From Escherichia phage dw-ec: 64,000 nt of DNA. Positions 49,575 through 64,000 of the stretch are shown piece after piece. The stretch's first letter is position 1. Each line of letters opens with the position of its first letter. The notes beneath the pieces were generated by a model. It ran no database searches. It had not been told where the DNA came from and worked only from the letters and a program-made list of their open reading frames with translations. The translations under genes and the position numbers were made by a program. The DNA lies in the sequence record OL739525.1; one strand, written 5' to 3'.

Positions 49575-49763
49575 ATGGCACGTTTAGCAGATCATGAAAT
49601 CTTTAAACCTATTCTGAACCATTATAATGAACTTAAAGCAGTGTTGGATTGTTATAAAGAGGATGAAGAACGCTTGGAAGTCAATCTTAAGATAGTTCTG
49701 ATGAAAGCTTTTCAAGACGGGCAAGCTGAAGTCTTAAGAGGTATGAAAAATGCGAATAACTGA
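49575..49763 (+). CDS. hypothetical protein
   Basis: ATG at 49575 with AAGGAGA RBS. Confidence 0.5.
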   Translation: MARLADHEIFKPILNHYNELKAVLDCYKEDEERLEVNLKIVLMKAFQDGQAEVLRGMKNANN

Positions 49764-50283
49764 TGAATATGTATTCTTCTTTTCACATAAAGATGTGTTT
49801 AGCAATTGGTACATTGCACCATTCACAGAGACGGAACCAGGGTACAGTGAGACTTTCTGTTGTGTAGAGCAATACATGATGTGGCGTAAGGCTTTGCTGT
49901 TCAAGGATCAGGTAATCGCAGCAGCTATCCTTGATCACTCAATGAAGCGAGACGACGAGAAGGGACAGGCATACTACAAGCGTATGGGTCGAGCGGTGTC
50001 TGGTTTTAATAATGACATGTGGGAAGAGTACCGAGAGCGTATCGTAATGCGAGGCTTATGCTTGAAGTATACACAGAACCCTGATCTTTACTCTGACTTG
50101 CGACTGTACCAATTCAAAACGTTCGTTGAGGCGAGTCCTTATGATAAGGTTTACGGAATTGGAATGGGTATGTACGAACCAGGGGTGCTTAATCCTGCCA
50201 ACTGGAAAGGGCAGAATCTTTTAGGTAAATATCATAATAAACTGATCGAAATACTTTTCCCAGACAAAATACCGCAAAGATGA
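49750..50283 (+). CDS. NADAR-domain protein (YbiA-like)
   Basis: 177 aa; FFFSHKDVFSNWY, CVEQYMMWRKALLF and KYTQNPDL..L segments fit the NADAR/DUF1768 fold family. Confidence 0.6.
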   Translation: MRITDEYVFFFSHKDVFSNWYIAPFTETEPGYSETFCCVEQYMMWRKALLFKDQVIAAAILDHSMKRDDEKGQAYYKRMGRAVSGFNNDMWEEYRERIVMRGLCLKYTQNPDLYSDLRLYQFKTFVEASPYDKVYGIGMGMYEPGVLNPANWKGQNLLGKYHNKLIEILFPDKIPQR

Positions 50284-50535
50284 TATTTGTGATATTTTAA
50301 CTTTTTTCATTTTTAGAACAAAGGTGTCACTTTGTAGCACAGAAATAAGGCTCCTACAGCACCGTAGAGAGCCTGTTATTTTGTCCTATACAAACCCTTA
50401 TCTTTTTCAGTTTGCATCACTAAGATTCGATCTAAGTGGGTTCCTGAAGGTCTACTAATAAGATTAAAGGTTATATCAAATTCCCACTATCCATTATCTC
50501 AAAAATCCCTCAAATTATTTAAACTTTTTAAGAAT

Positions 50536-50720
50536 TTACAAAAGTGAAAGTTGAAAACCAAAATTTAAAGTTTAGGAAAATTATCTTAAAATGTTAGATA
50601 CAAAACAAAACTCAAAAGTCAAGGAAAATTTTAAAAATTTTGCGCGCCCACAGTATTTAAAGTTTTTTTGCTTTTACAAAAATGAAAGTACAAAAGCAAA
50701 ATTTAAAGTTTACAAAAATT
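50536..50720. repeat. AT-rich direct repeats (two ~47-bp copies plus partial copies)
   Basis: 50536..50582 and 50674..50720 about 83% identical (TTACAAAA.TGAAAGT...AAAATTTAAAGTTTA..AAAATT); ATTTAAAGTTT occurs three times. Confidence 0.7.
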
Positions 50721-50731
50721 TTTATGCAGGT

Positions 50732-50752
50732 GAGAATGAGAAGAGTTCTCAT
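50732..50752. promoter_or_regulatory. palindromic operator-like site (ATGAGAA-gag-TTCTCAT)
   Basis: Perfect 7-bp inverted repeat; same half-site family as the Fur-box-like elements. Confidence 0.4.
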
Positions 50753-50762
50753 ATGGAAATGC

Positions 50763-50783
50763 AAATGATAATGATTCGCATTT
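50763..50783. promoter_or_regulatory. Fur-box-like element
   Basis: AAATGATAATGATTCGCATTT, partial match to GATAATGATAATCATTATC. Confidence 0.4.
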
Positions 50784-50820
50784 AAGTTTATAAATGAGAT
50801 TGATTCTTATTTAATAAGGT

Positions 50821-50850
50821 AAATGATAATCATTCTCATTTAGAGAATGA
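50821..50850. promoter_or_regulatory. Fur-box-like element with TCATTCTC-attta-GAGAATGA palindrome
   Basis: AATGATAATCATTCTC matches 15 of 16 positions of the Fur-box core AATGATAATCATTATC. Confidence 0.5.
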
Positions 50851-51098
50851 CGCGCAGGGGCGGTGTTTGTCTCGCGCTCCCGTGTCCCCTCGCCATGTAA
50901 TAAGAATAACAGATCCAGCCAGGAAAGCAAGCGATTATTTTATCTTTACATTTCTTTACAAATATATAGCGCCCAGCCTACCGGCGATCAACCTTCCAAC
51001 CAGCGCCCTGGTATGTTAGCCCCGCCTTTACGCCGTGGGGTGGCGCTTCCTCTTCTGTATGTAAAACAGTATAAGCCCGATCCCTGGGCTTGTCAAGA

Positions 51099-51365
51099 TT
51101 ATTTTTTGTTTTCTTGCCAGGATAGGACACCTAACCAAAAATACATATCGCCCCGCGCCCCTGGTGGTATCTTGCTTTCCCCGCCGCCACTGCAAGCCCA
51201 TAGATAACCATTTGCGAACGTATCAAAATGATCTATCTCTTCCACCTTATGATCGCCCAGGTTGAGAACGGTTTCAACCTTTAAGCCCGTTGCGCTTGCT
51301 ACCTGGTGCACCGTGCCGCCTTGCCAGCCCAATGAGTGCATAAGGTGTAATGTAGTAGTTGTCAT
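51099..51365 (-). CDS. hypothetical protein in GC-rich island
   Basis: 88 aa ORF with protein-like composition; surrounding 50860..51560 noticeably GC-richer than the rest of the window. Confidence 0.4.
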   Translation of the reverse strand: MTTTTLHLMHSLGWQGGTVHQVASATGLKVETVLNLGDHKVEEIDHFDTFANGYLWACSGGGESKIPPGARGDMYFWLGVLSWQENKK

Positions 51366-51474
51366 GGTGTCGCCCTTTCTTTGTTGTGCGCCCTGGTTGG
51401 CGCGGTAGAAAGATGATAGCCTTTTCCTTTATATATAGCAAGCAAAAAGAAAATAAAAAAGATTGAAAAAGTGG

Positions 51475-51503
51475 TTGACGTTCCTCACCTGGTAGCGTAG
51501 TAT
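51475..51503 (+). promoter_or_regulatory. sigma70-like promoter (TTGACG-17-TAGTAT)
   Basis: Upstream of 51639..51836. Confidence 0.4.
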
Positions 51504-51638
51504 TCATCTTGTCGAGGGGGGCGCGGCACAACGACAATAAAAAACAGGAGGGCGCAATGTAGGACGGGCAAAGGTGAGGATCTCCATAATCCACCGTCAA
51601 CCAACAAAAAACATCATTCATCACCTGGAGTTAAAATC

Positions 51639-51836
51639 ATGGCAACATTGCACATAGTAGCGAAAGCAGGACAAATCAGCGTCGTGGTAAACGGTTTTAC
51701 TGAGTTCAGTCATCCCCAGGATGATCATGAAACGGTTTTATCTTTCATTGATTCACTGTTAGAAATGGGAGTAATTACAGAAGACCAGCACGCTACAAAA
51801 TGCAAACGCGTTAATCAGATTGCAGGAATAGAATAA
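51639..51836 (+). CDS. hypothetical protein
   Basis: 65 aa ORF. Confidence 0.5.
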   Translation: MATLHIVAKAGQISVVVNGFTEFSHPQDDHETVLSFIDSLLEMGVITEDQHATKCKRVNQIAGIE

Positions 51837-51842
51837 AAAGTA

Positions 51843-51904
51843 TTGACAACAACCAACAACCTGATAAGATGTATCACATAGGGCGGCGGAATGGTCCACC
51901 GCTC
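51843..51904 (+). promoter_or_regulatory. promoter-leader cassette P1 (TTGACA-16-TAAGAT + leader stem-loop)
   Basis: -35 51843..51848, -10 51865..51870, then GTATCACATAGGGCGGCGGAATGGTCCACCGCTC hairpin and AGAAGAGAG leader. Confidence 0.7.
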
Positions 51905-51927
51905 ACAACAGAAGAGAGATTATAATC

Positions 51928-52200
51928 ATGGCATCATATAGCGCAACAATGATCGTAGCTGGCACCACTGGTAAACCTATGAGCGGTGGCGGATCTTTCG
52001 CAAATATCAACATTGACGGGCGTTTATCCCTGGACGCAGCGATCACCGTGGCGCGGGAAACATTTAAGAAAGAATGTAAATTCAATAAACAAGATTATCT
52101 CGGTTTTGCTATTGAAAAAACCGCGCGTTTTGTTGATTATAAAAGCCCAAAAATGGTTGATACTACACTAAAAGCGCAAGATGTAGCGTTTTTGCTTTAA
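51928..52200 (+). CDS. hypothetical early protein
   Basis: 90 aa ORF downstream of P1. Confidence 0.55.
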   Translation: MASYSATMIVAGTTGKPMSGGGSFANINIDGRLSLDAAITVARETFKKECKFNKQDYLGFAIEKTARFVDYKSPKMVDTTLKAQDVAFLL

Positions 52201-52203
52201 GGC

Positions 52204-52259
52204 TTGACATTAACGAATAATTTGTTAATATGTTACATAAAGCGGGAATAGTTCCCGCT
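52204..52259 (+). promoter_or_regulatory. promoter-leader cassette P2
   Basis: TTGACA, TAATAT, hairpin GCGGGAA-tag-TTCCCGC. Confidence 0.65.
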
Positions 52260-52276
52260 ATTTGTAAGGTGGTAGA

Positions 52277-52534
52277 ATGTTTTACATCAAATTAAAAGGT
52301 CACGTGATCGCGTTCAAAGATAACGCTTTTTACAGATTAGCAAAATATGCGTTAATACATCCCCACTATGTTTATATAAGGGGGCGTGATGAAATAAATA
52401 TCTTTGATCAAACAACATGCGAAAACATCGAGATCCGCAAGGTTGGCGTACGTGATTATCGTACATCTTTCTACCCTTGCAAGGATTCAGCAAGTCTTTT
52501 CAAAGTATGCCAATTGTTGAAAAAAGGTGGTTAA
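52277..52534 (+). CDS. hypothetical early protein
   Basis: 85 aa ORF. Confidence 0.55.
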   Translation: MFYIKLKGHVIAFKDNAFYRLAKYALIHPHYVYIRGRDEINIFDQTTCENIEIRKVGVRDYRTSFYPCKDSASLFKVCQLLKKGG

Positions 52535-52535
52535 T

Positions 52536-53093
52536 ATGGGCCGCGAATATGTGATCCAGTCTTGGGTAAAACATGAAGCAGATGATCCGCGCATCATTCC
52601 CGATCATCTTATCGATGAATCCACGGGATATAGCGGTGAGCAAATAGGTAACAGATTAGCACGTAGTAACGGCAACGTAAAAGCGCGTTATGTGCGCCCT
52701 GGTTGGCTGGCAAATGGTAATGCTGATTTATCCAGTGCGGAAGATGCGAGCGACGGCGCGAAAGATAATCCTTTGTACAAAGTTGATCCGGCTTTTCGTG
52801 TCCTGGATGAATACCCCAGCAAGATAGCGGCGCTCGATCAGGCCCTGGAAAGTAAGCGCATCACCTGGACCGCTTACAACATGGCAAAAAACGTACTTGA
52901 TGGTAAATTGATTCAAGCTGAAAGAAAATTAGCCAAAATTGCAGCCATAGCCCAGGAGGAAGACGAGGAGACAACGGAAGAGGAAGAGTACGAAGAGATC
53001 CCGCCGTTGTTGTGTGTTGATGCTTTTCCTGATTATCAGCCGACAGAGGAAGAAAAAAGGATCGCACTAGAAAACTTTGAAAATAGTCTTTGA
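52536..53093 (+). CDS. hypothetical early protein with acidic C-terminal region
   Basis: ATG at 52536 after AGGTGG; E-rich segment. Confidence 0.55.
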   Translation: MGREYVIQSWVKHEADDPRIIPDHLIDESTGYSGEQIGNRLARSNGNVKARYVRPGWLANGNADLSSAEDASDGAKDNPLYKVDPAFRVLDEYPSKIAALDQALESKRITWTAYNMAKNVLDGKLIQAERKLAKIAAIAQEEDEETTEEEEYEEIPPLLCVDAFPDYQPTEEEKRIALENFENSL

Positions 53094-53148
53094 CATATCG
53101 CCGCCACTGGCATAATATTTACCACGTAGGGCGGCAATGGTGCCGCTC
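53090..53148 (+). promoter_or_regulatory. promoter-leader cassette P3
   Basis: TTGACA-17-TAATAT, hairpin GCGGCA-atgg-TGCCGC. Confidence 0.65.
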
Positions 53149-53175
53149 ATAGTAAAATTATGCAAGAGGTTTGCA

Positions 53176-53271
53176 ATGATTAATAAAGAAAATAGCTTGA
53201 CGGTTGGAACGATTAACGCTATCATTTTCGCCGTTCCATTTTGGGTTGTAGTAGCGGCTATTATTTTCTAA
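53176..53271 (+). CDS. small hydrophobic peptide (31 aa)
   Basis: Not in ORF track; ATG after AAGAGG; MINKENSLTVGTINAIIFAVPFWVVVAAIIF; lies between cassettes P3 and P4. Confidence 0.35.
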   Translation: MINKENSLTVGTINAIIFAVPFWVVVAAIIF

Positions 53272-53280
53272 AAAATATTC

Positions 53281-53341
53281 TTGACAACGTTTTTTAATCT
53301 GATAAGATGTATCACATAGGGCGGCGGAATACTTCCCCGCC
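53281..53341 (+). promoter_or_regulatory. promoter-leader cassette P4
   Basis: TTGACA-16-TAAGAT, GTATCACATAGGGCGGCGGAATACTTCCCCGCC. Confidence 0.65.
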
Positions 53342-53362
53342 AAAACAAAAAAGGGTAACACA

Positions 53363-53725
53363 ATGAGCAAGCAAATCAGTACTATCATGTTTAATCTGGT
53401 ATCTTTCCGCGATGATATGAAAAATTTACCACGTGAAACGGTTGATATTCATGTTTCAGCTTATCGCGCCCTTATTGACATGTTACCGCTAAAACGTGAT
53501 CAACATGCCGCTAATATGATGCTTAATGCTATGCTTAAAAAGATGATTCAAACGGATCTCACCCTGGCATATGAGTATCAAGGGCGCTTATATGCAACTT
53601 ACAACAAAGCGGTACCTGGTTTGGGAAGTACCGAAGAGTTGCACGGCTTAAACCTGGATCAAAACACTTGGGATAGTATGCGCCGCGTTATGGTATGGGC
53701 CGAAAGCGGTAAAATTTACGAATAA
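53363..53725 (+). CDS. hypothetical early protein
   Basis: 120 aa ORF. Confidence 0.55.
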   Translation: MSKQISTIMFNLVSFRDDMKNLPRETVDIHVSAYRALIDMLPLKRDQHAANMMLNAMLKKMIQTDLTLAYEYQGRLYATYNKAVPGLGSTEELHGLNLDQNTWDSMRRVMVWAESGKIYE

Positions 53726-53731
53726 AAACGG

Positions 53732-53788
53732 TTGACACTGTTTAAACTTCTGGTATAGTTTATCACGTAGGGCGGCAATGGTGCCGCC
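53732..53788 (+). promoter_or_regulatory. promoter-leader cassette P5
   Basis: TTGACA-16-TATAGT, hairpin GGCGGCA-atgg-TGCCGCC. Confidence 0.65.
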
Positions 53789-53808
53789 AACAATAAAAGG
53801 TTAACATC

Positions 53809-53988
53809 ATGGCTATCATTGCAAAAACTGAGATTATAGGTTTAGATTCGATCCTCCTGGCTTATGAGGAAACTTTAAAAATGTATATAGTGACCTATGG
53901 TGATTATGTGCGTGAATACGAATACATTGATCTTGCTTTCGAATGTTACATTCGCCAGGTCAATAAAGCCTATAACGATTATCGTTAA
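53809..53988 (+). CDS. hypothetical early protein (59 aa)
   Basis: Not in ORF track; starts MAI like neighbouring cassette genes; hand-translated. Confidence 0.45.
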   Translation: MAIIAKTEIIGLDSILLAYEETLKMYIVTYGDYVREYEYIDLAFECYIRQVNKAYNDYR

Positions 53989-54007
53989 AAGTTTTAGTCT
54001 TATACTA

Positions 54008-54060
54008 TTGACAATGAGTGATAGTATAAGCATAATAACTTTTATCGGGAATACTTCCCA
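54008..54060 (+). promoter_or_regulatory. promoter-leader cassette P6
   Basis: TTGACA-17-CATAAT, hairpin GGGAA-tac-TTCCC. Confidence 0.6.
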
Positions 54061-54085
54061 CTAACCAAAAAGAGAGAGTGACACC

Positions 54086-54451
54086 ATGGCTATTAATATC
54101 AATGTTTCCGCTTATGCTACCCTGGCTAACACGGCTAAAATTGAATTATCCAGCATTGAGGCGGTGCATATTAGCGCCCGTCGCTGGTTTCAACGGTCCT
54201 ACGGTAACACATATTTTTCTTTAATGGTTGACGTTGAGATCGGCGGTAAACTGATCGAGGTGGTTAACGTTCCGTTTCAATATGGCTATGGTGATCATTT
54301 TGATACCGTCGCCCTGGAAGAATTTAGCAAGGTTATCAACCTTGAGGGCAAGGAATTTTCACGCGGCGCGTATCTTTCCCGTTTTTGCCGTGACAATGGG
54401 ATCACTGTATACAGTCATGCAAGCGATGTAAAACGTAAAAAAGATTTATAA
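54086..54451 (+). CDS. hypothetical early protein
   Basis: 121 aa ORF. Confidence 0.55.
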   Translation: MAININVSAYATLANTAKIELSSIEAVHISARRWFQRSYGNTYFSLMVDVEIGGKLIEVVNVPFQYGYGDHFDTVALEEFSKVINLEGKEFSRGAYLSRFCRDNGITVYSHASDVKRKKDL

Positions 54452-54456
54452 AAGCA

Positions 54457-54517
54457 TTGACAGCACGAATAAAAAGAGTAAACTGTATTACATAGAGAGC
54501 GGGAATAGTTCCCGCCT
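54457..54517 (+). promoter_or_regulatory. promoter-leader cassette P7
   Basis: TTGACA-16-TAAACT, GTATTACATAGAGAGCGGGAATAGTTCCCGCC. Confidence 0.65.
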
Positions 54518-54539
54518 CATTCAAAGAGAGATTATCATC

Positions 54540-54779
54540 ATGGCTATTACTAAAACTTACAACGGTCACAAAAACAAAACTCACTGGAATGTAAGCCTTT
54601 GGATTAATAACGATGAATCGTTATACCGGTTGGCCCAAGATTTTATTAACGCTAATGCTAATCGTAATGATGCGGCGCGGGATATGATGCTTTTTCTGGA
54701 ACAAACTGGACAAGATAAAACGCCAGACGGTTTCAAATATAGCACTACTGCGATCCGTGCCGCGATGGTTGGAATGTAA
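54540..54779 (+). CDS. hypothetical early protein
   Basis: 79 aa ORF. Confidence 0.55.
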   Translation: MAITKTYNGHKNKTHWNVSLWINNDESLYRLAQDFINANANRNDAARDMMLFLEQTGQDKTPDGFKYSTTAIRAAMVGM

Positions 54780-54788
54780 TAAAAACAG

Positions 54789-54849
54789 TTGACAACGTTT
54801 AAAATTAGTGTAAGATGTATCACATAGGGCGGGAAGTGGTTTCCCGCCA
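54789..54849 (+). promoter_or_regulatory. promoter-leader cassette P8
   Basis: TTGACA-16-TAAGAT, hairpin GGCGGGAA-gtggt-TTCCCGCC. Confidence 0.65.
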
Positions 54850-54869
54850 AAACAGAGAGATTAAAGATT

Positions 54870-55097
54870 ATGGCTATCAATATTGTTCGCGTATCCGGCA
54901 CCGTTGGCACTTCCCAGGTCATTGCAGTTGTAACAAACAAAAAGATTAATGATGTATGTGAGATCTTGAATAAGTGGGCTGTTGCTAATTTTGGGGAATA
55001 TGCAAGCGTCGAGTACATCGAATCCTACCAGGTGCCAACCATCAGCCTAACCGATCTCAACGTTGATCGCCTGTTATGCCTGGATGAATTAATCTGA
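54870..55097 (+). CDS. hypothetical early protein
   Basis: 75 aa ORF. Confidence 0.55.
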   Translation: MAINIVRVSGTVGTSQVIAVVTNKKINDVCEILNKWAVANFGEYASVEYIESYQVPTISLTDLNVDRLLCLDELI

Positions 55098-55106
55098 AAA
55101 AGATTG

Positions 55107-55164
55107 TTGACACGGGAAAGAAAAAGAGTAAACTGTATTACGTAGGGCGGCAATAGTGCCGCTC
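55107..55164 (+). promoter_or_regulatory. promoter-leader cassette P9
   Basis: TTGACA-16-TAAACT, hairpin GCGGCA-atag-TGCCGC. Confidence 0.65.
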
Positions 55165-55187
55165 ACAACAGAAGAGAGATTATCACG

Positions 55188-55400
55188 ATGGCTAATATCC
55201 GCACACTGTTAAAAAATGCAAGTCAAGTTTTATTTTCTGATCACGATCATTTTAATAAAGATATTACAGGCGTGAAGAATATCAAAGATGTAAAAAGTGT
55301 TATGGGTATATATTGCAATGTTAAACGTGTTGGAACGTTCGGTGATAAAGTATTGTATCAATCAGGTGATTACAATTTTACTTTGACGATTATTTCATAA
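55188..55400 (+). CDS. hypothetical early protein
   Basis: 70 aa ORF. Confidence 0.55.
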   Translation: MANIRTLLKNASQVLFSDHDHFNKDITGVKNIKDVKSVMGIYCNVKRVGTFGDKVLYQSGDYNFTLTIIS

Positions 55401-55406
55401 AACCGC

Positions 55407-55468
55407 TTGCAATACTGCAAAAATAAAGTAAACTGTATTACATCAAGGCGGCGGAATGGTCCACCGCC
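55407..55468 (+). promoter_or_regulatory. promoter-leader cassette P10
   Basis: TTGCAA-16-TAAACT, hairpin GGCGGCGGAATGGTCCACCGCC. Confidence 0.6.
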
Positions 55469-55492
55469 TAACAAAGAGAAGAGGAAAACATC

Positions 55493-55660
55493 ATGATCAC
55501 TTTCGCTACCCGTGAAGCCGCTCGCAACGTTGCCCGTAAAGTTAACGCCGCCAACCTGGGCGCTACGTTTAAAGCACCTGTAAAAGATGAATCAGGAAAA
55601 TGGATCTTCCCTGGTCTGCGTCACGCTGATAAGCTAGGCACTTTAAGCCTTAAAAAATAA
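55493..55660 (+). CDS. hypothetical early protein (55 aa)
   Basis: Not in ORF track; MITFATREAARNVARKV...; shares MITFA start with 55735..55956. Confidence 0.45.
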   Translation: MITFATREAARNVARKVNAANLGATFKAPVKDESGKWIFPGLRHADKLGTLSLKK

Positions 55661-55663
55661 TCG

Positions 55664-55701
55664 TTGACTTTTCGTTATAGCGCCCATTATAAGGCGCTAT
55701 A
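55664..55701 (+). promoter_or_regulatory. promoter-like element P11 with distinct hairpin
   Basis: TTGACT then AGCGCC-cattataa-GGCGCT hairpin overlapping the -10 region. Confidence 0.4.
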
Positions 55702-55734
55702 GAGAAGAGAAACCACTACTAACAAGGAAACATC

Positions 55735-55956
55735 ATGATCACTTTCGCTATTGTCGCCGTTGTTGCTGGTCAGGTTTACGTAAACGATACATTCACCACA
55801 GAAGACAAGGCCGCAGGAGACATAACCGCCGTTTACAATGAGTGCAAGGCAGTAGAAAGAATGTTAGCGCCTTGTATGCTAATGAGTGAACGCCAGGACG
55901 GGATAACAGTATTTACTAACATTGAAACAGGGTACCAAATGGTAGTAACAAAATAA
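55735..55956 (+). CDS. hypothetical early protein
   Basis: 73 aa ORF. Confidence 0.5.
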   Translation: MITFAIVAVVAGQVYVNDTFTTEDKAAGDITAVYNECKAVERMLAPCMLMSERQDGITVFTNIETGYQMVVTK

Positions 55957-55959
55957 AGC

Positions 55960-56018
55960 TTGACACGGATTTAATTTTCAGTAAACTGTTACACGTAGAG
56001 CGGGAATAGTTCCCGCTC
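55960..56018 (+). promoter_or_regulatory. promoter-leader cassette P12
   Basis: TTGACA-17-TAAACT, hairpin GCGGGAA-tag-TTCCCGC. Confidence 0.65.
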
Positions 56019-56035
56019 AAAAAGAGAGAAAGACC

Positions 56036-56389
56036 ATGAAAGCACAAAATGCAATTAAAGAGTACATCCTTGCCGCTATCGATTTTAATGATTACGGTAT
56101 TACAACCGAAAAAGAGAAGATCGCGGAATTGATGCGCCGTTTTAATTCCGAGTACTGGTACCCTGATAACCAATCACGTTTTAATTATAGTATTGTTAAA
56201 GCACTTGCATCATGGTTACAAGGTTTGCCATCAGATATCAATATCGCTTTCGAATATTGGGAAATTGATCGCCTGTTAACATCCTGGGGATACATTAAAG
56301 AGAATAGCAGCGATGATAAAATCCAACGAGAAAGGGAAAATTATTGGCTTTATATTGCAGGCGTGATCCTTGCTTGCTCTTATGAATGA
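56036..56389 (+). CDS. hypothetical early protein
   Basis: 117 aa ORF. Confidence 0.55.
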   Translation: MKAQNAIKEYILAAIDFNDYGITTEKEKIAELMRRFNSEYWYPDNQSRFNYSIVKALASWLQGLPSDINIAFEYWEIDRLLTSWGYIKENSSDDKIQRERENYWLYIAGVILACSYE

Positions 56390-56395
56390 TAAACC

Positions 56396-56449
56396 TTGAC
56401 AATTTTACAAAACAGTTTAAATTAATAATATAGCGGCAATGGTACCGCT
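56396..56449 (+). promoter_or_regulatory. promoter-leader cassette P13
   Basis: TTGACA, AT-rich -10 region, hairpin GCGGCA-atgg-TACCGC (one mismatch). Confidence 0.5.
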
Positions 56450-56468
56450 CATATAAAGAGGAAACAAA

Positions 56469-56615
56469 ATGAATACATCTAATCGCGCAGAAAAAATTCA
56501 ATCTTCCAAGATCCGCAAGGCCTGGAATGAGGAAGTGATCCGCAAAGGCGACAAGCGCAATAAAACAAAGCGCGGGAAGAGTGACAAATATAATTGGATG
56601 GATTTAGAGAATTAA
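56469..56615 (+). CDS. small basic protein (48 aa)
   Basis: Not in ORF track; ATG after AAGAGGAAA; Lys/Arg-rich. Confidence 0.4.
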   Translation: MNTSNRAEKIQSSKIRKAWNEEVIRKGDKRNKTKRGKSDKYNWMDLEN

Positions 56616-56621
56616 CATAAC

Positions 56622-56650
56622 AAGGGCGCACCAAGCGCCCTTTCTTTTTA
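56622..56650 (+). terminator. rho-independent terminator
   Basis: GGGCGC-accaa-GCGCCC followed by TTTCTTTTT; near-identical copies at 61964 and 62529. Confidence 0.7.
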
Positions 56651-56670
56651 CATGTAGAGGATAAACAAAA

Positions 56671-56856
56671 ATGACTTTAAACGAGCTTAAAACAGCGTAC
56701 AGCGCAACATTAAAAATAGCCGTGCGTTACCGTGACGAATACGGTTTTATTGCGCAGGGCGTGATCCTGGGCTTTTCTGACGATGGTTTGATCTATGTTG
56801 ATGCACATTATAACAAGGTTAAACCGGAAAACGTTATTAGCATAAAATATCTTTAA
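56671..56856 (+). CDS. hypothetical early protein
   Basis: 61 aa ORF. Confidence 0.5.
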   Translation: MTLNELKTAYSATLKIAVRYRDEYGFIAQGVILGFSDDGLIYVDAHYNKVKPENVISIKYL

Positions 56857-56862
56857 AAACGG

Positions 56863-56922
56863 TTGACACCATAACCGGACCTGTTAAACTGTATTACATC
56901 AGGCGGGGAATAGTTCCCCACC
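56863..56922 (+). promoter_or_regulatory. promoter-leader cassette P14
   Basis: TTGACA-16-TAAACT, hairpin GGGGAA-tag-TTCCCC. Confidence 0.65.
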
Positions 56923-56941
56923 ATACAAAAAGGTAAATATT

Positions 56942-57148
56942 ATGATCACCGCAAAACAAGAAAAAATCATTATCGACGTTGCAGCCGTTGCCGCTATCGC
57001 TATTATTGGATCTTATTATGATACCCGTTTCCCGTCGGCTATGCATGAGGTCGCCGCCGTTGCATCAGTTGGCGTACTGTTTTACGTTGGTAAACGCTAT
57101 TTATCACCAATGATTAACAAGCTGACACCGTGGAAAAATAAAGGTTGA
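56942..57148 (+). CDS. small membrane protein
   Basis: 68 aa; hydrophobic segment IIIDVAAVAAIAIIG. Confidence 0.5.
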   Translation: MITAKQEKIIIDVAAVAAIAIIGSYYDTRFPSAMHEVAAVASVGVLFYVGKRYLSPMINKLTPWKNKG

Positions 57149-57201
57149 TCCTGTTTTACATTGTGTTATAGTTATCGTGTAGGGCGGCAATGGTGCCGCG
57201 C
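57145..57201 (+). promoter_or_regulatory. promoter-leader cassette P15
   Basis: TTGATC-16-TATAGT, hairpin GCGGCA-atgg-TGCCGC. Confidence 0.55.
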
Positions 57202-57219
57202 CCCTTTGAGGATGCAATC

Positions 57220-57504
57220 ATGAGTAAAGCTAACACCGTGCTAATGTTTTCCCTGATTAATGATCTCGCTTACTTGTCCAACATGACGCAGGAGGGTAAC
57301 ACATTAACGGCAACATTCACCAATAAGCTTGACCGAGTGATCATCATCTCACTGAAAACAGTTAGTAAAGGCTTTTACTCGTTAGCTTATCATTGGATCA
57401 CCGATACCGATGAGACAAGCCAGGACTATAGCGCCCCTTTCCCTGAATCAATGGCACGGGAGATCATCGCCGCCGTTATAAATGATGGTTTGTTTACTGC
57501 ATAA
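57220..57504 (+). CDS. hypothetical early protein
   Basis: ATG at 57220 after GAGGA; track start 57190 lies inside the leader hairpin. Confidence 0.5.
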   Translation: MSKANTVLMFSLINDLAYLSNMTQEGNTLTATFTNKLDRVIIISLKTVSKGFYSLAYHWITDTDETSQDYSAPFPESMAREIIAAVINDGLFTA

Positions 57505-57521
57505 ATAATTTAGAAAAAGGC

Positions 57522-57578
57522 TTGCAATCATTTTGAGATAGTGTATATTTAATTCATAGGGCGGCGGGAATAGTTCCC
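57522..57578 (+). promoter_or_regulatory. promoter-leader cassette P16
   Basis: TTGCAA, TATATT, hairpin GGGAA-tag-TTCCC. Confidence 0.55.
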
Positions 57579-57601
57579 AAAGCAAACGAGAGGATTACAC
57601 G

Positions 57602-57721
57602 ATGAGCAAGTACACAGTAGAATACACGGTAGAAAATCCGGCAGTATCCGAAGGTAAAAAGATGACATTTGCCATCAGTATAATCGCTTTCGTTGTCACT
57701 ATCTTATCAATCATCTTATAA
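57602..57721 (+). CDS. small membrane peptide (39 aa)
   Basis: Not in ORF track; ATG after GAGAGGA; C-terminal TM helix FAISIIAFVVTILSIIL. Confidence 0.35.
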   Translation: MSKYTVEYTVENPAVSEGKKMTFAISIIAFVVTILSIIL

Positions 57722-57731
57722 GGTGCACACC

Positions 57732-57893
57732 ATGAAAACAACAGACATTATCAAAGAGATCGCCCTTGCCGCTGGCGTTGAAGTCGAGGAAGTGATCGCG
57801 CTCAATCTTACAGAAAACGATCTGCGCAACTATGAAGCGGAAAGCGTGAAAGCAAGCGGCGCGGTCCTGGTATATGATCCGGCTAACAAGTAA
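57732..57893 (+). CDS. hypothetical early protein
   Basis: ATG at 57732 after AAGGTG. Confidence 0.45.
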   Translation: MKTTDIIKEIALAAGVEVEEVIALNLTENDLRNYEAESVKASGAVLVYDPANK

Positions 57894-57902
57894 GGGGATA
57901 AC

Positions 57903-58013
57903 ATGAATCCGAAAGATATGCAAGCATGGAAAGGGTACGACGATCTAAGCGCCTTGCGCAATAAGTCAAGCCGTAACCTTAGACGGTTGGAAGCAAAGAA
58001 AAAGAAAAAATAG
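57903..58013 (+). CDS. small basic protein (36 aa)
   Basis: Not in ORF track; ATG after AAGGGGA; Lys-rich tail. Confidence 0.3.
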   Translation: MNPKDMQAWKGYDDLSALRNKSSRNLRRLEAKKKKK

Positions 58014-58014
58014 T

Positions 58015-58071
58015 TTGACAAGTCCGCCTAGTCTGATAATATGTATCTTGTAGGGCGGCAATGGTGCCGCT
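58015..58071 (+). promoter_or_regulatory. promoter-leader cassette P17
   Basis: TTGACA-16-TAATAT, hairpin GCGGCA-atgg-TGCCGC. Confidence 0.65.
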
Positions 58072-58091
58072 CACAAGAAGAGAGAAAAATC

Positions 58092-58376
58092 ATGAAAATC
58101 ACAAAAAGCCTAACTAATTATGCAGCACGTCGCGGATTATGTTTAACCGTTGAAAACTTAGGGAAAGAAGACTTTTTGTGTTTTTGGGAGCTTGAAAATG
58201 ATTGCGAGTGGATGTTTTCTTATTCTATCTGCGAAGATCAAAACGGTTGTTTGTTAACCTGGCGCGGTAATATCTATTTACCGGAAGAAATTAAAGAAGA
58301 GTTACCAGGTACGATCATGACAGAGAGACAGCTTAAGGAAATGATTAATTTTGTAGGGCAAAACATTAAAAAATAA
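58092..58376 (+). CDS. hypothetical early protein
   Basis: ATG at 58092 (track start 58041 overlaps the leader hairpin). Confidence 0.5.
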   Translation: MKITKSLTNYAARRGLCLTVENLGKEDFLCFWELENDCEWMFSYSICEDQNGCLLTWRGNIYLPEEIKEELPGTIMTERQLKEMINFVGQNIKK

Positions 58377-58377
58377 T

Positions 58378-58440
58378 TTGACAGCACGCAAATAACGTAG
58401 TAAAGTTTATTACATAGAGCGGCGGAATGGTCCACCGCTC
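58378..58440 (+). promoter_or_regulatory. promoter-leader cassette P18
   Basis: TTGACA-17-TAAAGT, hairpin GCGGCGGAATGGTCCACCGC. Confidence 0.65.
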
Positions 58441-58461
58441 ACAACAGAAGAGAAACAAATC

Positions 58462-58632
58462 ATGATCCCGACTATGTTTTATGTATCGCGCAAAGGTCAC
58501 AATATTTTTTGGTCTGAAGATTTAAATGAAGCTATGACGTTTGCCCGTGATCGTGTTGCTATCGGTGGCGTTAACATCACCGTAACCGATGAAAACGGCA
58601 TTGAATACTATAACGGCGACAATGAAGAGTAA
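58462..58632 (+). CDS. hypothetical early protein (56 aa)
   Basis: Not in ORF track; hand-translated without stops. Confidence 0.45.
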   Translation: MIPTMFYVSRKGHNIFWSEDLNEAMTFARDRVAIGGVNITVTDENGIEYYNGDNEE

Positions 58633-58639
58633 TCAACAA

Positions 58640-58657
58640 GGCGGGATTAATCCCGCC
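58640..58657 (+). other. intergenic stem-loop (GGCGGGAT-ta-ATCCCGCC)
   Basis: Perfect 8-bp stem between two small genes; no U-tract. Confidence 0.5.
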
Positions 58658-58676
58658 TGTATTAAAGGGCAATATA

Positions 58677-58814
58677 ATGAAAACTTTCAACGCAACAGCC
58701 TCGACAATTGGTTATATTATTACAGTACAAGCCGTTGACCTGGTAGCGGCAGCAAACAAGATTAAAAAAATGATCCCAACAGGCAGCGAATTTTCCGTTT
58801 GGGAAGTAAAATAA
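58677..58814 (+). CDS. hypothetical early protein (45 aa)
   Basis: Not in ORF track; hand-translated. Confidence 0.4.
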   Translation: MKTFNATASTIGYIITVQAVDLVAAANKIKKMIPTGSEFSVWEVK

Positions 58815-58817
58815 AGC

Positions 58818-58880
58818 TTGACAATAATTTGTTATCTAGTAAAGTGTATTACGTAGGGCGGGGCAATGGTGCAACGCCCA
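58818..58880 (+). promoter_or_regulatory. promoter-leader cassette P19
   Basis: TTGACA-16-TAAAGT, GTATTACGTAGGGCGGGGCAATGGTGCAACGCCC. Confidence 0.6.
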
Positions 58881-58897
58881 TTAATGAGGGTAGAATC

Positions 58898-59002
58898 ATG
58901 TTAGAGAAAATTTTCACGGTTGCAGTGGTTGGCCTGGCGTTATCGGTTGGAGTAGTTGCAACTATGGCTAATATGATCCTATCTTCCCACGGTATCGGTT
59001 AA
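58898..59002 (+). CDS. small membrane peptide (34 aa)
   Basis: ATG at 58898 after GAGGGTAGAA; MLEKIFTVAVVGLALSVGVVATMANMILSSHGIG. Confidence 0.35.
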   Translation: MLEKIFTVAVVGLALSVGVVATMANMILSSHGIG

Positions 59003-59003
59003 G

Positions 59004-59228
59004 GTGAAACAAATGATCACGAACAAAACAGGCAAAACGGAATTTTTACGCGGCTTACAAGTTGGTAAGCCTGAGATCTGGCATTGCACGAAGTCCGCGC
59101 ATAATGAAATGAAAGATTTTACCGCTACTTTACAACGTGTTAAAATATCTATCACACAGAAAAAAGCCTTGTTAGTAGTAGAAAACGAGATCCCGCAAAC
59201 TATTATTATTGTCGAGCGTACAGCATGA
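59004..59228 (+). CDS. hypothetical early protein
   Basis: 74 aa ORF. Confidence 0.5.
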   Translation: MKQMITNKTGKTEFLRGLQVGKPEIWHCTKSAHNEMKDFTATLQRVKISITQKKALLVVENEIPQTIIIVERTA

Positions 59229-59611
59229 AAACAGAAATCATTATTGAAATCATCAACGGCTATAAAGAAGCCTTTATTTTTGCTGAATCAGCAAGGGATC
59301 ATGAAGGTAATTTTATTGATAACTTAGACGATTATGATTTTTCTCCTAGCGCGGATCAACGGATCGCCCAGGATGTAACAGCCTTTATTAATGCTAATCT
59401 TGCCGCTATCTCTGAGGCAATGAGCGACGGCGCAACAGCCAACCAGATCGGGAATGATTTACATTTTACCCGTAACGGTCACGGCGTAGGCTTTTGGGAT
59501 CGCCCTGAAATATACACCACTAACACGGCGAACCGCCTAACCAATGCAGCTAAGTTTATGCCGAACGTGTCGGCTTACATTGGTGAAGATAATTTGATTT
59601 ATATTGAATAA
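59225..59611 (+). CDS. hypothetical early protein
   Basis: 128 aa ORF. Confidence 0.55.
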   Translation: MKTEIIIEIINGYKEAFIFAESARDHEGNFIDNLDDYDFSPSADQRIAQDVTAFINANLAAISEAMSDGATANQIGNDLHFTRNGHGVGFWDRPEIYTTNTANRLTNAAKFMPNVSAYIGEDNLIYIE

Positions 59612-59617
59612 AAAGTA

Positions 59618-59675
59618 TTGACACAGATCGCCAGTGTGATAATATTTACCACGTAGGGCGGCAATGGTGCCGCTC
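59618..59675 (+). promoter_or_regulatory. promoter-leader cassette P20
   Basis: TTGACA-16-TAATAT, hairpin GCGGCA-atgg-TGCCGC. Confidence 0.65.
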
Positions 59676-59694
59676 ACTGTAAAAGGTAAACATT

Positions 59695-59886
59695 ATGAAA
59701 ACTATCACCTATCTGGAATCGAATAACATGTTTTTTGCGCCCGTTGATGAAATCATCGAAGCATTAAACAACGAGGAAGGGATCAATGGTTTATCTTATA
59801 GCCAACTTTTAGGAATGGTTGCAGCAAATGCAGAGCTTGCTTACTATGTTGAAAATTTTGATGAAGCTGTAATCTTTACAAAATAA
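59695..59886 (+). CDS. hypothetical early protein
   Basis: 63 aa ORF. Confidence 0.5.
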   Translation: MKTITYLESNNMFFAPVDEIIEALNNEEGINGLSYSQLLGMVAANAELAYYVENFDEAVIFTK

Positions 59887-59889
59887 TCC

Positions 59890-59946
59890 TTGATCTAATC
59901 TCTTAAATAACTTATATTTAATGCGTAGGGCGGCAATGGTGCCGCC
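59890..59946 (+). promoter_or_regulatory. promoter-leader cassette P21
   Basis: TTGATC-17-TATATT, hairpin GGCGGCA-atgg-TGCCGCC. Confidence 0.55.
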
Positions 59947-59964
59947 GATAATGAGGAAAGTAAA

Positions 59965-62515: not shown

Positions 62516-62528
62516 TTGACAACAAAAC

Positions 62529-62556
62529 AAGGGCGCACCAAGCGCCCTTTCTTTTT
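62529..62556 (+). terminator. rho-independent terminator
   Basis: GGGCGC-accaa-GCGCCC followed by TTTCTTTTT; identical core to 56622. Confidence 0.7.
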
Positions 62557-63130
62557 GCCCGAACAATGTTGATAGCTTTCGCCTATGAAAAACCGACACA
62601 GAACAAAATTGAATAAATCGCGGTATCGAGCTAATCAACCATTAAACGAATAACCATACCTCCCAGGGTAACAGGCTGTTAGAGAGCCATTTATAGCGGT
62701 TAAAATCGATCAACAACCAACAACAAACCATCAAAAACACCCTTCTACCTCCTTTCTAGTGCAATGATAACCATTATCATCTACCCATGATTATCTATGC
62801 AATATAAGCGCATAATTATAATGTTGATAATAGTTCGCAACAACTAACCAACAAACAACATAAAACAATAAGCAAACTAATCATAATCAAAGGAATAATA
62901 GCAAGATGATTGATAACGACAAACAATCAAACCATGATGAATACTAAGCAAAATAACGATAACACGACAAAACAACCAACTAACGAACAATAACAAACGA
63001 AACCATTAAAATAATAACTATTGCCATAATAGTGACTGAATGAAATCATTACAAAACGAATCATTCACAGGATCATCATTAGCACGCTATGCCGGACACA
63101 TAGCGAGCTAATAATAAGCCAACTACACCC
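62557..63130 (+). other. ORF-free, strongly A+C-skewed non-coding region
   Basis: No ORF of 60 aa or more in any frame from 62516 to the window end; plus strand dominated by A and C with CAA/AAC-type triplet runs. Confidence 0.7.
62765..62779. promoter_or_regulatory. palindrome TGATAA-cca-TTATCA
   Basis: Inverted repeat of Fur-box-like hexamers. Confidence 0.4.
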
Positions 63131-63138
63131 CAACAATC

Positions 63139-63206
63139 ATAACCATCGGTGATGGTTATTTCTTGTTACTGCGTAGCTTGCAATAATTGCAAGCGTAATG
63201 ACGCTT
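63139..63206. repeat. cluster of three distinct palindromes
   Basis: ATAACCATC-ggt-GATGGTTAT (63139..63159), CTTGCAAT-a-ATTGCAAG (63177..63193), AAGCGT-aatg-ACGCTT (63191..63206). Confidence 0.7.
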
Positions 63207-63590
63207 ACACTTATTGCGCTGGCTTATTATTAGCATTATATGTAATTACCAAGATCATAACATTAGCGCAATAACAATAATCATTGTAATGGTTACAATA
63301 TGAAATCATTAGCAGGATGAATAATTGCACGTAGCAACATGAGCGAATAGCGACAGGTTGCATAGTGTGCACATAATAGAATAAAAGTCAATAATTTTGG
63401 GGGCGAAATGTTACCGCCACGGGCGGGAATGTTGAGCACTAAGAAAAGAGATAAACCTTAATCATGGGGGCGTAAATATCCGCAGGATTGCCAACGGCGA
63501 TCCGGTAGGATGTTGAGCATCTTCTCTTAAACGTAAATAAAATCAGAAAATTCTTGATTTATTCTGGTTTTTATGTTAATAAACGTTTAA

Positions 63591-63610
63591 ATAATAATCA
63601 TTCTCATATG
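63591..63610. promoter_or_regulatory. Fur-box-like element
   Basis: ATAATAATCATTCTCATATG; shares ATAATCATTCTCAT core with 50826..50839. Confidence 0.45.
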
Positions 63611-63766
63611 AATAATAGTCCGTCTGTCATGAGCGGCATTAGTTGACATTGTTCCGTCATATGATGAAGTTGCCAAACCATTGATAAATAAGCGTTTGTG
63701 TGATTTATAATCAAGTGGCCCACCTTGTCGCTATGTTGGCATAAGCCTTGCATAAGTCATTGAATA

Positions 63767-63789
63767 CGAATGATAATTATTCTCATTCG
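63767..63789. promoter_or_regulatory. Fur-box-like palindromic element
   Basis: CGAATGA-taattattc-TCATTCG. Confidence 0.45.
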
Positions 63790-63895
63790 CATGATATTTG
63801 GGAATTGTCGCTGCGTGGACCTGACGGCCCGAAAATTCGCGTTAGGTTAAACACCCAAGCAGACGCCGCAATATCAGCACCGACAGGAAACACAA

Positions 63896-64000
63896 AGACA
63901 CCGACAACTTTCTTGTCACATGTGTACTTCGTTCAGTTTCGAATGTTCGGGTGTTTATGCAATCGTAAGCCCTACCGTGACAAGAAAGTTGTCGGTGTCT
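63896..64000. repeat. 24-bp perfect inverted repeat (arms 63896..63919 and 63977..64000) flanking a 57-nt spacer
   Basis: AGACACCGACAACTTTCTTGTCAC and its exact reverse complement; right arm touches the window edge. Confidence 0.8.

Follow-up and report, generated by a model that had tools for sequence, protein, structure and literature searches.

What an island of GC-rich DNA does in the AT-rich genome of a virulent myophage, and whether it came from elsewhere, is the question raised by positions 50860-51560 of a 64,000-nucleotide (nt) stretch of Escherichia phage dw-ec (sequence record OL739525.1; this whole stretch is hereafter the window). A first-pass annotation had offered two answers, namely recent horizontal acquisition (a moron) or a structured non-coding element. 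Our analysis suggests that the island is probably a conserved leftward early-type module of the phAPEC8/rV5-like phages, comprising a small protein gene, whose product has 88 amino acids (aa), and a structured non-coding RNA. The core of this RNA is a candidate new RNA family kept across two phage subfamilies, Vequintavirinae and Stephanstirmvirinae. The locus has conserved sequence and synteny, covarying base pairs, conserved promoters and a coding signal, and its RNAs would be early transcripts of the minus strand.

The core extends over more phages than the gene. A blastn search with the 261-nt non-coding stretch 50840-51100 recovered 233 phage records, against 150 for the 88-aa protein in a tblastn search. 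The matches include the Vequintavirinae genera Seunavirus, Mydovirus, Certrevirus and Henunavirus, all of which lack the 88-aa gene and in which only the core of ~125 nt aligns, at 77-84% identity, within unannotated gaps of up to ~1 kb. Searching IMG/VR, metagenomes and bacterial genomes for the core motif brought in extra homologues once chance hits had been set aside. When 63 loci were searched with a covariance model made from 50 sequences, each yielded a single copy, and the window has a sole hit (50931-51077, minus strand, 137.7 bits). The bacterial genome scan returned chance hits and one phage contig inside a metagenome-assembled genome (MAG): a 4-kb contig of a 'Proteobacteria bacterium' MAG (L089, JAEZZU010000352.1) carries the core RNA (135.8 bits) beside a 99.6%-identical 88-aa gene and is, judging from these matches, a Phapecoctavirus fragment binned into a bacterial MAG. 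Rfam 15 has no match to 50843-51560 on either strand at E<=10 and nothing for 50900-51100; elsewhere in 50200-51700 there are a few weak matches far below gathering scores, and nothing attains a gathering score in the whole window. Open-access papers and preprints, searched by core, tail and palindrome strings and for small RNA (sRNA) work on these phages, contain no description of the element.

Read on the minus strand, the core consists of an early-type 5' leader (ACAGAAGAGGAAG, 51058..51046), a probable H-type pseudoknot, a hairpin with a G-run loop 3' of it (P2, 51015..50997) and a conserved tail (GGAAGGUUGAUCGCCGGUAG, 50997..50978). The pseudoknot would be formed by stem Sb (CGCC 51045..51042 with GGCG 51034..51031) and stem Sa (CCCC 51040..51037 with GGGG 51023..51020), with loops of 1, 2 and 7 nt in dw-ec; a register-aware analysis gives CGCC-A-CCCC-AC-GGCG-UAAAGGC-GGGG, the last loop being A-rich. 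In the model alignment 92.4% of paired cells are standard pairs, compared with 83.5% in shuffles (0 of 500 reach the observed value), and slid controls for core pairing gave 28-52%. All five tested pairs of P2 change on both sides, and a compensatory change distinguishes CCGACC...GGUACG from CCAACC...GGUAUG. Stem Sa occurs in four Watson-Crick variants (CCCC/GGGG, CCAA/UUGG, CCAU/AUGG and CCAG/CUGG), and stem Sb as CGCC/GGCG plus one compensatory variant, GAC/GUC, in two sequences. Pseudoknot loops measure 1-2, 1-3 and 6-7 nt across homologues, except that inserted mini-hairpins lengthen one loop by 52-53 nt in L014 and L039; hairpin loops in the core vary from 4 to ~13 nt among alignments. 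RNAalifold on gapped MAFFT alignments returned no useful consensus. The P2 loop (51002-51010) holds a homopolymer run, G on the minus and C on the plus strand, whose length ranges from 3 to 7 among near-identical phages.

Several other readings of the same letters were tried and set aside. Because loop lengths change by 1-2 nt between near-identical phages, no open reading frame (ORF) runs across the element; the plus-strand ORF 50863-51207, annotated in phAPEC8, is broken in frame by these differences and has no PHROG or Pfam match. A long-range helix (CUACC/GGUGG) and an alternative pairing in place of the pseudoknot (GGCG/CGCC) are broken in the variants L015, L025, L029, L030 and L049, which keep Sa and Sb. 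A mini-ORF in the tail (GUG-GAU-CGC-CGG-UAG) has a start codon of variable position, the GGA motifs of a CsrA sponge are not conserved in sequences of the L009, L011 and L025 types, and a likeness to a CRISPR repeat (type I-E-like GCGGGG-CUAAC) is confined to one subtype and was judged by eye. Nor is the element tRNA-like: ARAGORN finds no tRNA or tmRNA in the window or in seven homologous loci, and does not support the tRNA-Met and tRNA-Ile features of OY978796.1 (Klebsiella phage K45PH128C2, 1862-2015), which are annotated over a Fur-type palindrome, the promoter Pm2 and the core start and are apparently spurious.

The first-pass annotation placed its possible structured RNA on the plus strand. 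A structured element there is; its strand is most likely minus, because a conserved promoter (Pm1), the pseudoknot geometry, the gene layout in a distant clade and the early-type leader all point that way. Pm1, a predicted near-consensus sigma-70 promoter, lies directly upstream of the core as it would in an sRNA gene, and keeps a fixed distance to the core in the 52 of 53 distinct homologues that have it, with hexamers averaging 9.9 of 12 matches and variable spacers; the best plus-strand sites in the same stretches reach 7.6-7.7 of 12. A short first and a long A-rich last loop, the classical pseudoknot geometry, result only when the minus strand is read. In a distant low-GC clade, TTGCTT-17-TATAAT precedes the element and a GC hairpin with a U-tail comes after it, which is the canonical layout of a small-RNA gene on the minus strand; such a hairpin is present in L014, L025, L039 and L067. 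The predicted Pm1 RNA starts with ACAGAAGAG, a string that recurs only three times in the 64 kb, each time in a rightward early-gene leader 13-17 nt before the ATG.

The same evidence bears on the proposal that the core acts as DNA and not as RNA, as a protein-binding site or a single-stranded-DNA structure such as a priming or packaging signal. Its helices are strand-symmetric, the wobble evidence is mixed, and a near-invariant 18-mer and two TCTTTACA repeats resemble binding sites; we nevertheless regard this proposal as highly improbable, given the promoter conserved at a fixed distance upstream, the early-mRNA-type leader with which the element starts and the terminator past it in the distant clade. 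The rV5-like phages are, moreover, circularly permuted headful packagers and so have no fixed genome end (PMC3475682); a genome terminus or pac site is unlikely for the same reason (PMC3475682).

The leader links the island to the early genes at large. The early region contains 17 modules, each made up of a sigma-70 promoter, an ACAT/ACGT-AG start context, a 5' hairpin (GGCGGCAAUGGUGCCGCU), a purine-rich leader and an ATG. Their 17 rightward promoters (AAAA..TTGACA-17-TAAGAT/TAAACT) are spread over 51880-59950 (for example at 51882, 53130, 55146, 58054 and 59657), with a near-identical stem-loop at the start. The phAPEC8 annotation names these hairpins 'PHIRE promoters', and the repeated hairpin perhaps has a role in mRNA stabilisation or recognition. 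In relatives, early transcription has been reported to use sigma-70-like promoters, and the phages to depend on the RNA polymerase of the host (PMC7344957). By its sequence, the minus strand of the island would hold three modules of this early type, headed by the predicted promoters P88, Pm1 and Pm2.

P88 belongs to the protein gene. The minus-strand ORF of 88 codons with an ATG start is exactly as the first-pass annotation drew it, and its homologues and substitution pattern mark it as a real gene. Its product matches PHROG 19316 (E 3e-59); homologues in a large protein collection range from 98% down to 47% identity, nearly all of ~88 aa, and share an N-terminal LMHSLGWQGGTVHQVASATGLKVETILNL that hardly varies as well as a conserved FWLGV at the C-terminus. 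A profile search with the family retrieved 210 cluster representatives, mostly of 80-110 aa; the large proteins it also matched are leucine-rich-repeat false positives. Among close relatives, distinct substitutions fall 15/9/1 on codon positions 3/1/2, and 17 are synonymous against 8 non-synonymous. Current annotations of the locus differ, with a plus-strand ORF in phAPEC8, a minus-strand gene in anhysbys and none in ECO340P1. Downstream of P88 come a 5' hairpin GCGCC/GGCGC (51403..51388), a purine-rich leader and the ATG, and a GC hairpin at 51073-51091 lies both inside the Pm1 spacer and 3' of the stop codon.

AlphaFold2 models the product as five helices (pLDDT 94), including helices at residues 19-26 and 30-38, and residues 19-36 fit a helix-turn-helix (HTH) pattern by eye (A at 5, G at 9, hydrophobic at 4, 10 and 15); DNA binding is therefore a possible function suggested by the sequence. 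For such a domain there was no Pfam match and no significant fold match, XRE/Cro entries appearing only at a match probability of 0.25 or less. The middle of the gene is hypervariable: the cassette 51140-51260 (residues ~36-75) is only 45-70% identical to anhysbys and iGC_PHA_EC001, whereas both flanks are 98-100% identical, and in Shigella phage SF1-1 all of 51060-51300 is replaced, including the Pm1 spacer hairpin. Read from these alignments, this is cassette exchange within a conserved reading frame, a pattern that we take as typical of proteins under host-interaction pressure.

Is the island, then, foreign? Its composition had been described correctly: the window has a mean GC content of 0.395 (701-nt windows, standard deviation 0.024), which 50860-51560 exceeds with 0.485 (z 3.7), only 6 of 6330 sliding 701-nt windows are at least as GC-rich, and this is the GC-richest 700 nt of the 64 kb. 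Both 300-nt extremes of the window are here, the maximum (0.52, start 51111) within the island and the minimum (0.237, start 50511) immediately to its left. The gene shares the bias, with GC at third codon positions (GC3) of 0.49 against 0.33 ± 0.07 for long ORFs, which may reflect an old foreign origin. A recently acquired moron, that is, foreign DNA bringing an autonomous gene, would account for this composition, for the promoter-like site (51441..51413) and the hairpin past the stop codon (51091..51073) that the gene has of its own, for its absence from the Vequintavirinae that retain the RNA, and for the swapping of its middle between phages otherwise 98-100% identical. Such an acquisition, as suggested in the first-pass annotation, is largely refuted by conservation at the same position in relatives, which that annotation had itself named as evidence against it. 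The window belongs to Phapecoctavirus, and the 1.8 kb around the island are 98.7% identical to Escherichia phage BI-EHEC and match 144 phage records, mainly Phapecoctavirus and Justusliebigvirus (Stephanstirmvirinae), 123 of them at 90-99% identity. Neither the position nor the orientation of the gene changes in phAPEC8, anhysbys, iGC_PHA_EC001, ECO340P1 (unannotated there) or the diverged SF1-1 and KP13-26, and every related (Stephanstirmvirinae) genome inspected has it between a NADAR gene and the small early genes; it is missing only in a different subfamily, and in LTH01, a record filed under Vequintavirinae, it stands at the record's end. Neither patchy presence among close relatives nor a donor was found, and blastn of the island against 5,426 complete E. 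coli genomes gave no match. The GC-richness derives from the RNA helices (61-68% GC) and the composition of the gene, not from recent import, and the peak comes mostly from RNA elements common to the two subfamilies; a GC peak at the element with a trough to its left recurs in 20 of 22 homologous loci profiled from other genera, the two exceptions being the low-GC loci L025 and L035. Recent acquisition is thus the least credible of the explanations considered here.

Table 1 Features of the island and its flanks in the window (promoters and RNA elements are predicted)
Feature	Position	Strand	Details or basis
GC-rich hairpin, T-runs on both strands, 3' of NADAR gene	50348..50374	no strand	sequence; phAPEC8 counterpart
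AT-rich tract, AT-richest part of the window	50511..50720	no strand	two 72-nt direct repeats and shorter A-rich repeats
Four Fur-box-type 9-1-9 palindromes, AATGAkAATnATTmTCATT	50735..50840	no strand	starts 50735, 50764, 50793, 50822
Hairpin 2, GC-rich, imperfect (AUGGCGAGGGG ... CCCCUGCGCGUCAU)	50847..50896	minus	at predicted Pm2 transcript start
Pm2, sigma-70-type	50903..50930	minus	TTGCTT (50930..50925), 16 nt, TATTCT (50908..50903); start near 50896-50898
Two direct repeats TCTTTACA (plus; UGUAAAGA in minus-strand RNA)	50943..50960	no strand	one helical turn apart
Core structured RNA (candidate)	50978..51062	minus	alignments, covariance model, register analysis
Pm1, near-consensus sigma-70	51068..51096	minus	TTGACA (51096..51091), 17 nt, TATACT (51073..51068); 11/12 consensus matches
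88-aa all-helical (modelled) protein gene, PHROG 19316	51099..51365	minus	homologues, substitution pattern, AlphaFold2 model
P88, early-type module of 88-aa gene	51388..51441	minus	TTGCTA (51441..51436), 17 nt, TATCAT (51418..51413)
Divergent rightward early promoter TTGACG-17-TAGTAT	51475..51503	plus	starts early gene cluster, first ORF 51639-51836

The left part of the island contains Pm2, whose position is conserved with TTGnnn-16/17-TATTAT/TATATT in ~40 of 53 distinct homologues. Hairpin 2 has a conserved AGACAAACA at its apex, in an enlarged loop, and its stem in relatives (AGCGGG...CCCGCU) is the sequence of the standard early 5' hairpin; 89% of its cells are paired, compared with 27-54% in slid controls, and as an RNA structure it is plausible only. 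The TCTTTACA repeats between the core and Pm2 are conserved in both subfamilies and may be protein-binding sites. The string TTTACAA also occurs at 50535, 50673 and 50709, in the AT-rich repeats.

Beyond hairpin 2 lie the Fur-box-like sites and AT-rich repeats that the first-pass annotation had seen flanking the island; they resolve into four 19-nt palindromes and two 72-nt direct copies. The palindromes are spaced exactly 29 nt apart and have 0 to 3 mismatches to the 19-bp Fur-box consensus; the window contains seven such palindromes against 0.24 expected by chance, the other three (62763-62781, 63590-63608 and 63769-63787) being in a second non-coding region. Their consensus is that of Xanthomonas Fur (PMC1790865), and the rightmost copy is kept in most relatives, including Vequintavirinae. 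Compared with a Fur box in the 9-1-9 reading (AATGAnAATnATTnTCATT; PMC1790865), they match at 16 to 19 of 19 positions; what differs is that four of them are arrayed in phase in a lytic phage and that no copy clearly overlaps a strong promoter, and as Fur sites they are putative. By their sequence, they could serve iron/Fur control, Fur titration or as operators of a phage protein.

The second non-coding region, 62516-64000, is a long stretch without ORFs of >=50 aa except one of 53 aa, with a strong A-over-T bias on the plus strand and no match in Rfam. It contains two tandem GC-rich units (~63399-63445 and ~63466-63525), both ending in ATGTTGAGCA, the second with GGCGATCCGGTAGG, which is reminiscent of the core tail.

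Tandem promoters followed by phased palindromes and then by the AT-richest, repeated 200-400 nt of the window (72-nt direct repeats at 50511-50582 and 50649-50720, 82% identical) could also describe a replication origin, in which Pm1 and Pm2 would transcribe into the palindromes and an AT-rich unwinding element, their transcripts activating the origin or priming synthesis. The primary origin of T7 and oriF and oriG of T4 combine a promoter with a downstream AT-rich unwinding element, and the tandem promoters here likewise point to an AT-rich tract in a non-coding gap; the trough left of the element recurs in most related phages profiled, and the region is non-coding over ~0.7-1 kb in all genera. 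Unlike in those origins, conserved RNA structures stand between the promoters and the AT-rich tract, and origin transcripts would need no pseudoknot and hairpin kept by compensatory changes. The GC-skew minimum is at ~44 kb, where gene orientation flips, not at the island, and inspection by eye picked out neither a DnaA-box family nor an iteron family. We therefore consider an origin unlikely, albeit the strongest of the competing explanations.

The gap in which the island lies spans 1.35 kb between the NADAR-domain gene (49750-50283; Pfam E 7e-34) and the small rightward early genes (first ORFs 51639-51836 and 51928-52200). Three leftward promoters thus face the end of a rightward operon, and the gap is rich in promoter-like sites (13 against 4.4 ± 2.2), among them a plus-strand candidate, TTTACA-17-GAGAAT (50709-50737), that overlaps the first palindrome. 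This layout would suit a cis-antisense or insulator function, in which leftward promoters and structured RNAs would keep rightward transcripts, read through from the upstream operon or started at Fur-controlled promoters of the AT tract, out of the early region by blocking them or pairing with them. The hairpin 50348..50374, the homologue of which in phAPEC8 is annotated as an ARNold terminator, is by its sequence the terminator of the upstream operon, and so good a terminator already ends that operon; no conserved plus-strand promoter stands beside the core, and interference alone leaves the conserved RNA secondary structure and the tail unexplained. Insulation accordingly appears a little less likely even than an origin. 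Judging from the alignments, the origin, insulator and DNA-element explanations all seem to account for the compensatory changes less well than a structured RNA does.

Taken as an early module that makes a small protein and a structured RNA, the locus would work as follows. Three host sigma-70-type promoters would fire leftward in the gap between the upstream rightward operon and the early cluster. P88 would express a small helical protein, conserved at its N-terminus, whose middle recombines and is hypervariable; Pm1 would express a non-coding RNA in which the early-gene leader ACAGAAGAG is followed by pseudoknot, covarying hairpin and tail with no start codon; and transcription from Pm2 would yield a 5' hairpin of the early type whose loop is enlarged, and would continue into the Fur-box-type palindromes. 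Leftward transcripts would run through the palindromes and AT-rich repeats to the bidirectional terminator 50348..50374, a possible end point. Leader and tail (AAGGUnGAUCGCCGGUAG) are apparently unpaired, purine-rich and Shine-Dalgarno-like, and because of this we favour a regulatory or decoy RNA acting through them. Specifically, the Pm1 RNA could tentatively be an early regulatory or decoy RNA that pairs with a target or titrates a factor recognising early translation-initiation regions. More speculative is the fuller proposal of an early structured RNA common to Vequintavirinae and Stephanstirmvirinae that might act in trans as decoy or regulator, by titrating a factor or ribosomes or by pairing through its tail, with the Fur array coupling the module to host iron or titrating Fur.

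Several observations count against this interpretation. Stem Sb covaries in only one lineage, the covariation of hairpin 2 is not significant, and the folding of single sequences gives unremarkable energies (z -1.5 for the minus and -0.8 for the plus strand). As the sequences are related, the shuffle controls overstate significance, and the invariance of the tail is partly an artefact, since the IMG/VR and metagenome loci were retrieved by that motif and only the BLAST-derived loci are unbiased in this respect. Wobble counts do not discriminate between strands, G-U-only and A-C-only cells occurring on both readings. In the window, the core has no canonical intrinsic terminator past it, the one terminator-like site nearby being a weak AU-rich hairpin (50851..50829); RNA starts, ends and strand are all inferred, and lengths of ~75 nt for the Pm2 RNA and ~240 nt for the Pm1 RNA are guesses. 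Within the 64-kb window there is no second site complementary or identical to the tail, and no target or partner was found. Finally, fold searches with the 88-aa protein gave no informative match.

Among the closest known systems, lambda OOP, P22 sar, P1 c4 and the P4 CI RNA are small regulatory or antisense RNAs encoded in control regions of temperate phages and have defined antisense targets; the resemblance is that of short folded non-coding transcripts from host-type promoters beside early genes, whereas sequence and structure are not similar and the element studied here comes from virulent myophages. H-type pseudoknots serve as protein-recognition sites in the 5' leaders of T4/T2 gene 32 mRNA and of E. 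coli rpsO and in the alpha-operon operators. Like these, the core would have a compact two-stem form with a first loop of 1-2 nt and an A-rich last loop of 6-7 nt past a Shine-Dalgarno-like leader; unlike them, it is followed by no ORF, and its predicted stems are of just 4 bp each.

Within the same phage group, the rV5-like Pectobacterium phage PhiTE carries pseudo-ToxI, a tandem 36-nt repeat at 106.7 kb that acts as an antitoxin-mimic decoy (PMC3475682). Pseudo-ToxI is a functional non-coding RNA (PMC3475682) and shares with the dw-ec candidate its place in an intergenic gap, but the dw-ec element is single-copy, without repeat units and without similarity to ToxI. The nearest marker of our locus in PhiTE, a partial match to the 88-aa protein, is near 40 kb, and we reject identity with pseudo-ToxI, which has another locus and another architecture (PMC3475682). 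A type III (ToxI-like) toxin-antitoxin system is likewise not indicated: there are no repeat units, and the neighbouring protein has no toxin family match.

On its right the island abuts the divergent rightward early promoter, which in phAPEC8 is followed by the standard early 5' hairpin. The ~120 nt past this promoter (51505-51625) differ between relatives, with the standard hairpin in phAPEC8, SF1-1 and iGC_PHA_EC001; the dw-ec version, which lies between 12-nt direct repeats (at 51481 and 51617), has instead AGGAGG, 6 nt and then an ATG-TAG start-stop mini-ORF (51546-51562).

Virulent phages are known to have few functional non-coding RNAs, and the candidate RNA described here is widespread at the DNA level, with 233 phage records from at least six host genera, including many phages of E. 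coli, Klebsiella, Salmonella and Cronobacter that are candidates for therapy. Annotators have overlaid the element with spurious ORFs or tRNAs, and the plus-strand 'hypothetical proteins' over 50863-51207 should be dropped from annotations. The hypervariable small early protein and the Fur-box array may reflect host-interaction or arms-race functions, and the candidate RNA offers a concrete handle on early host takeover in this group of phages.

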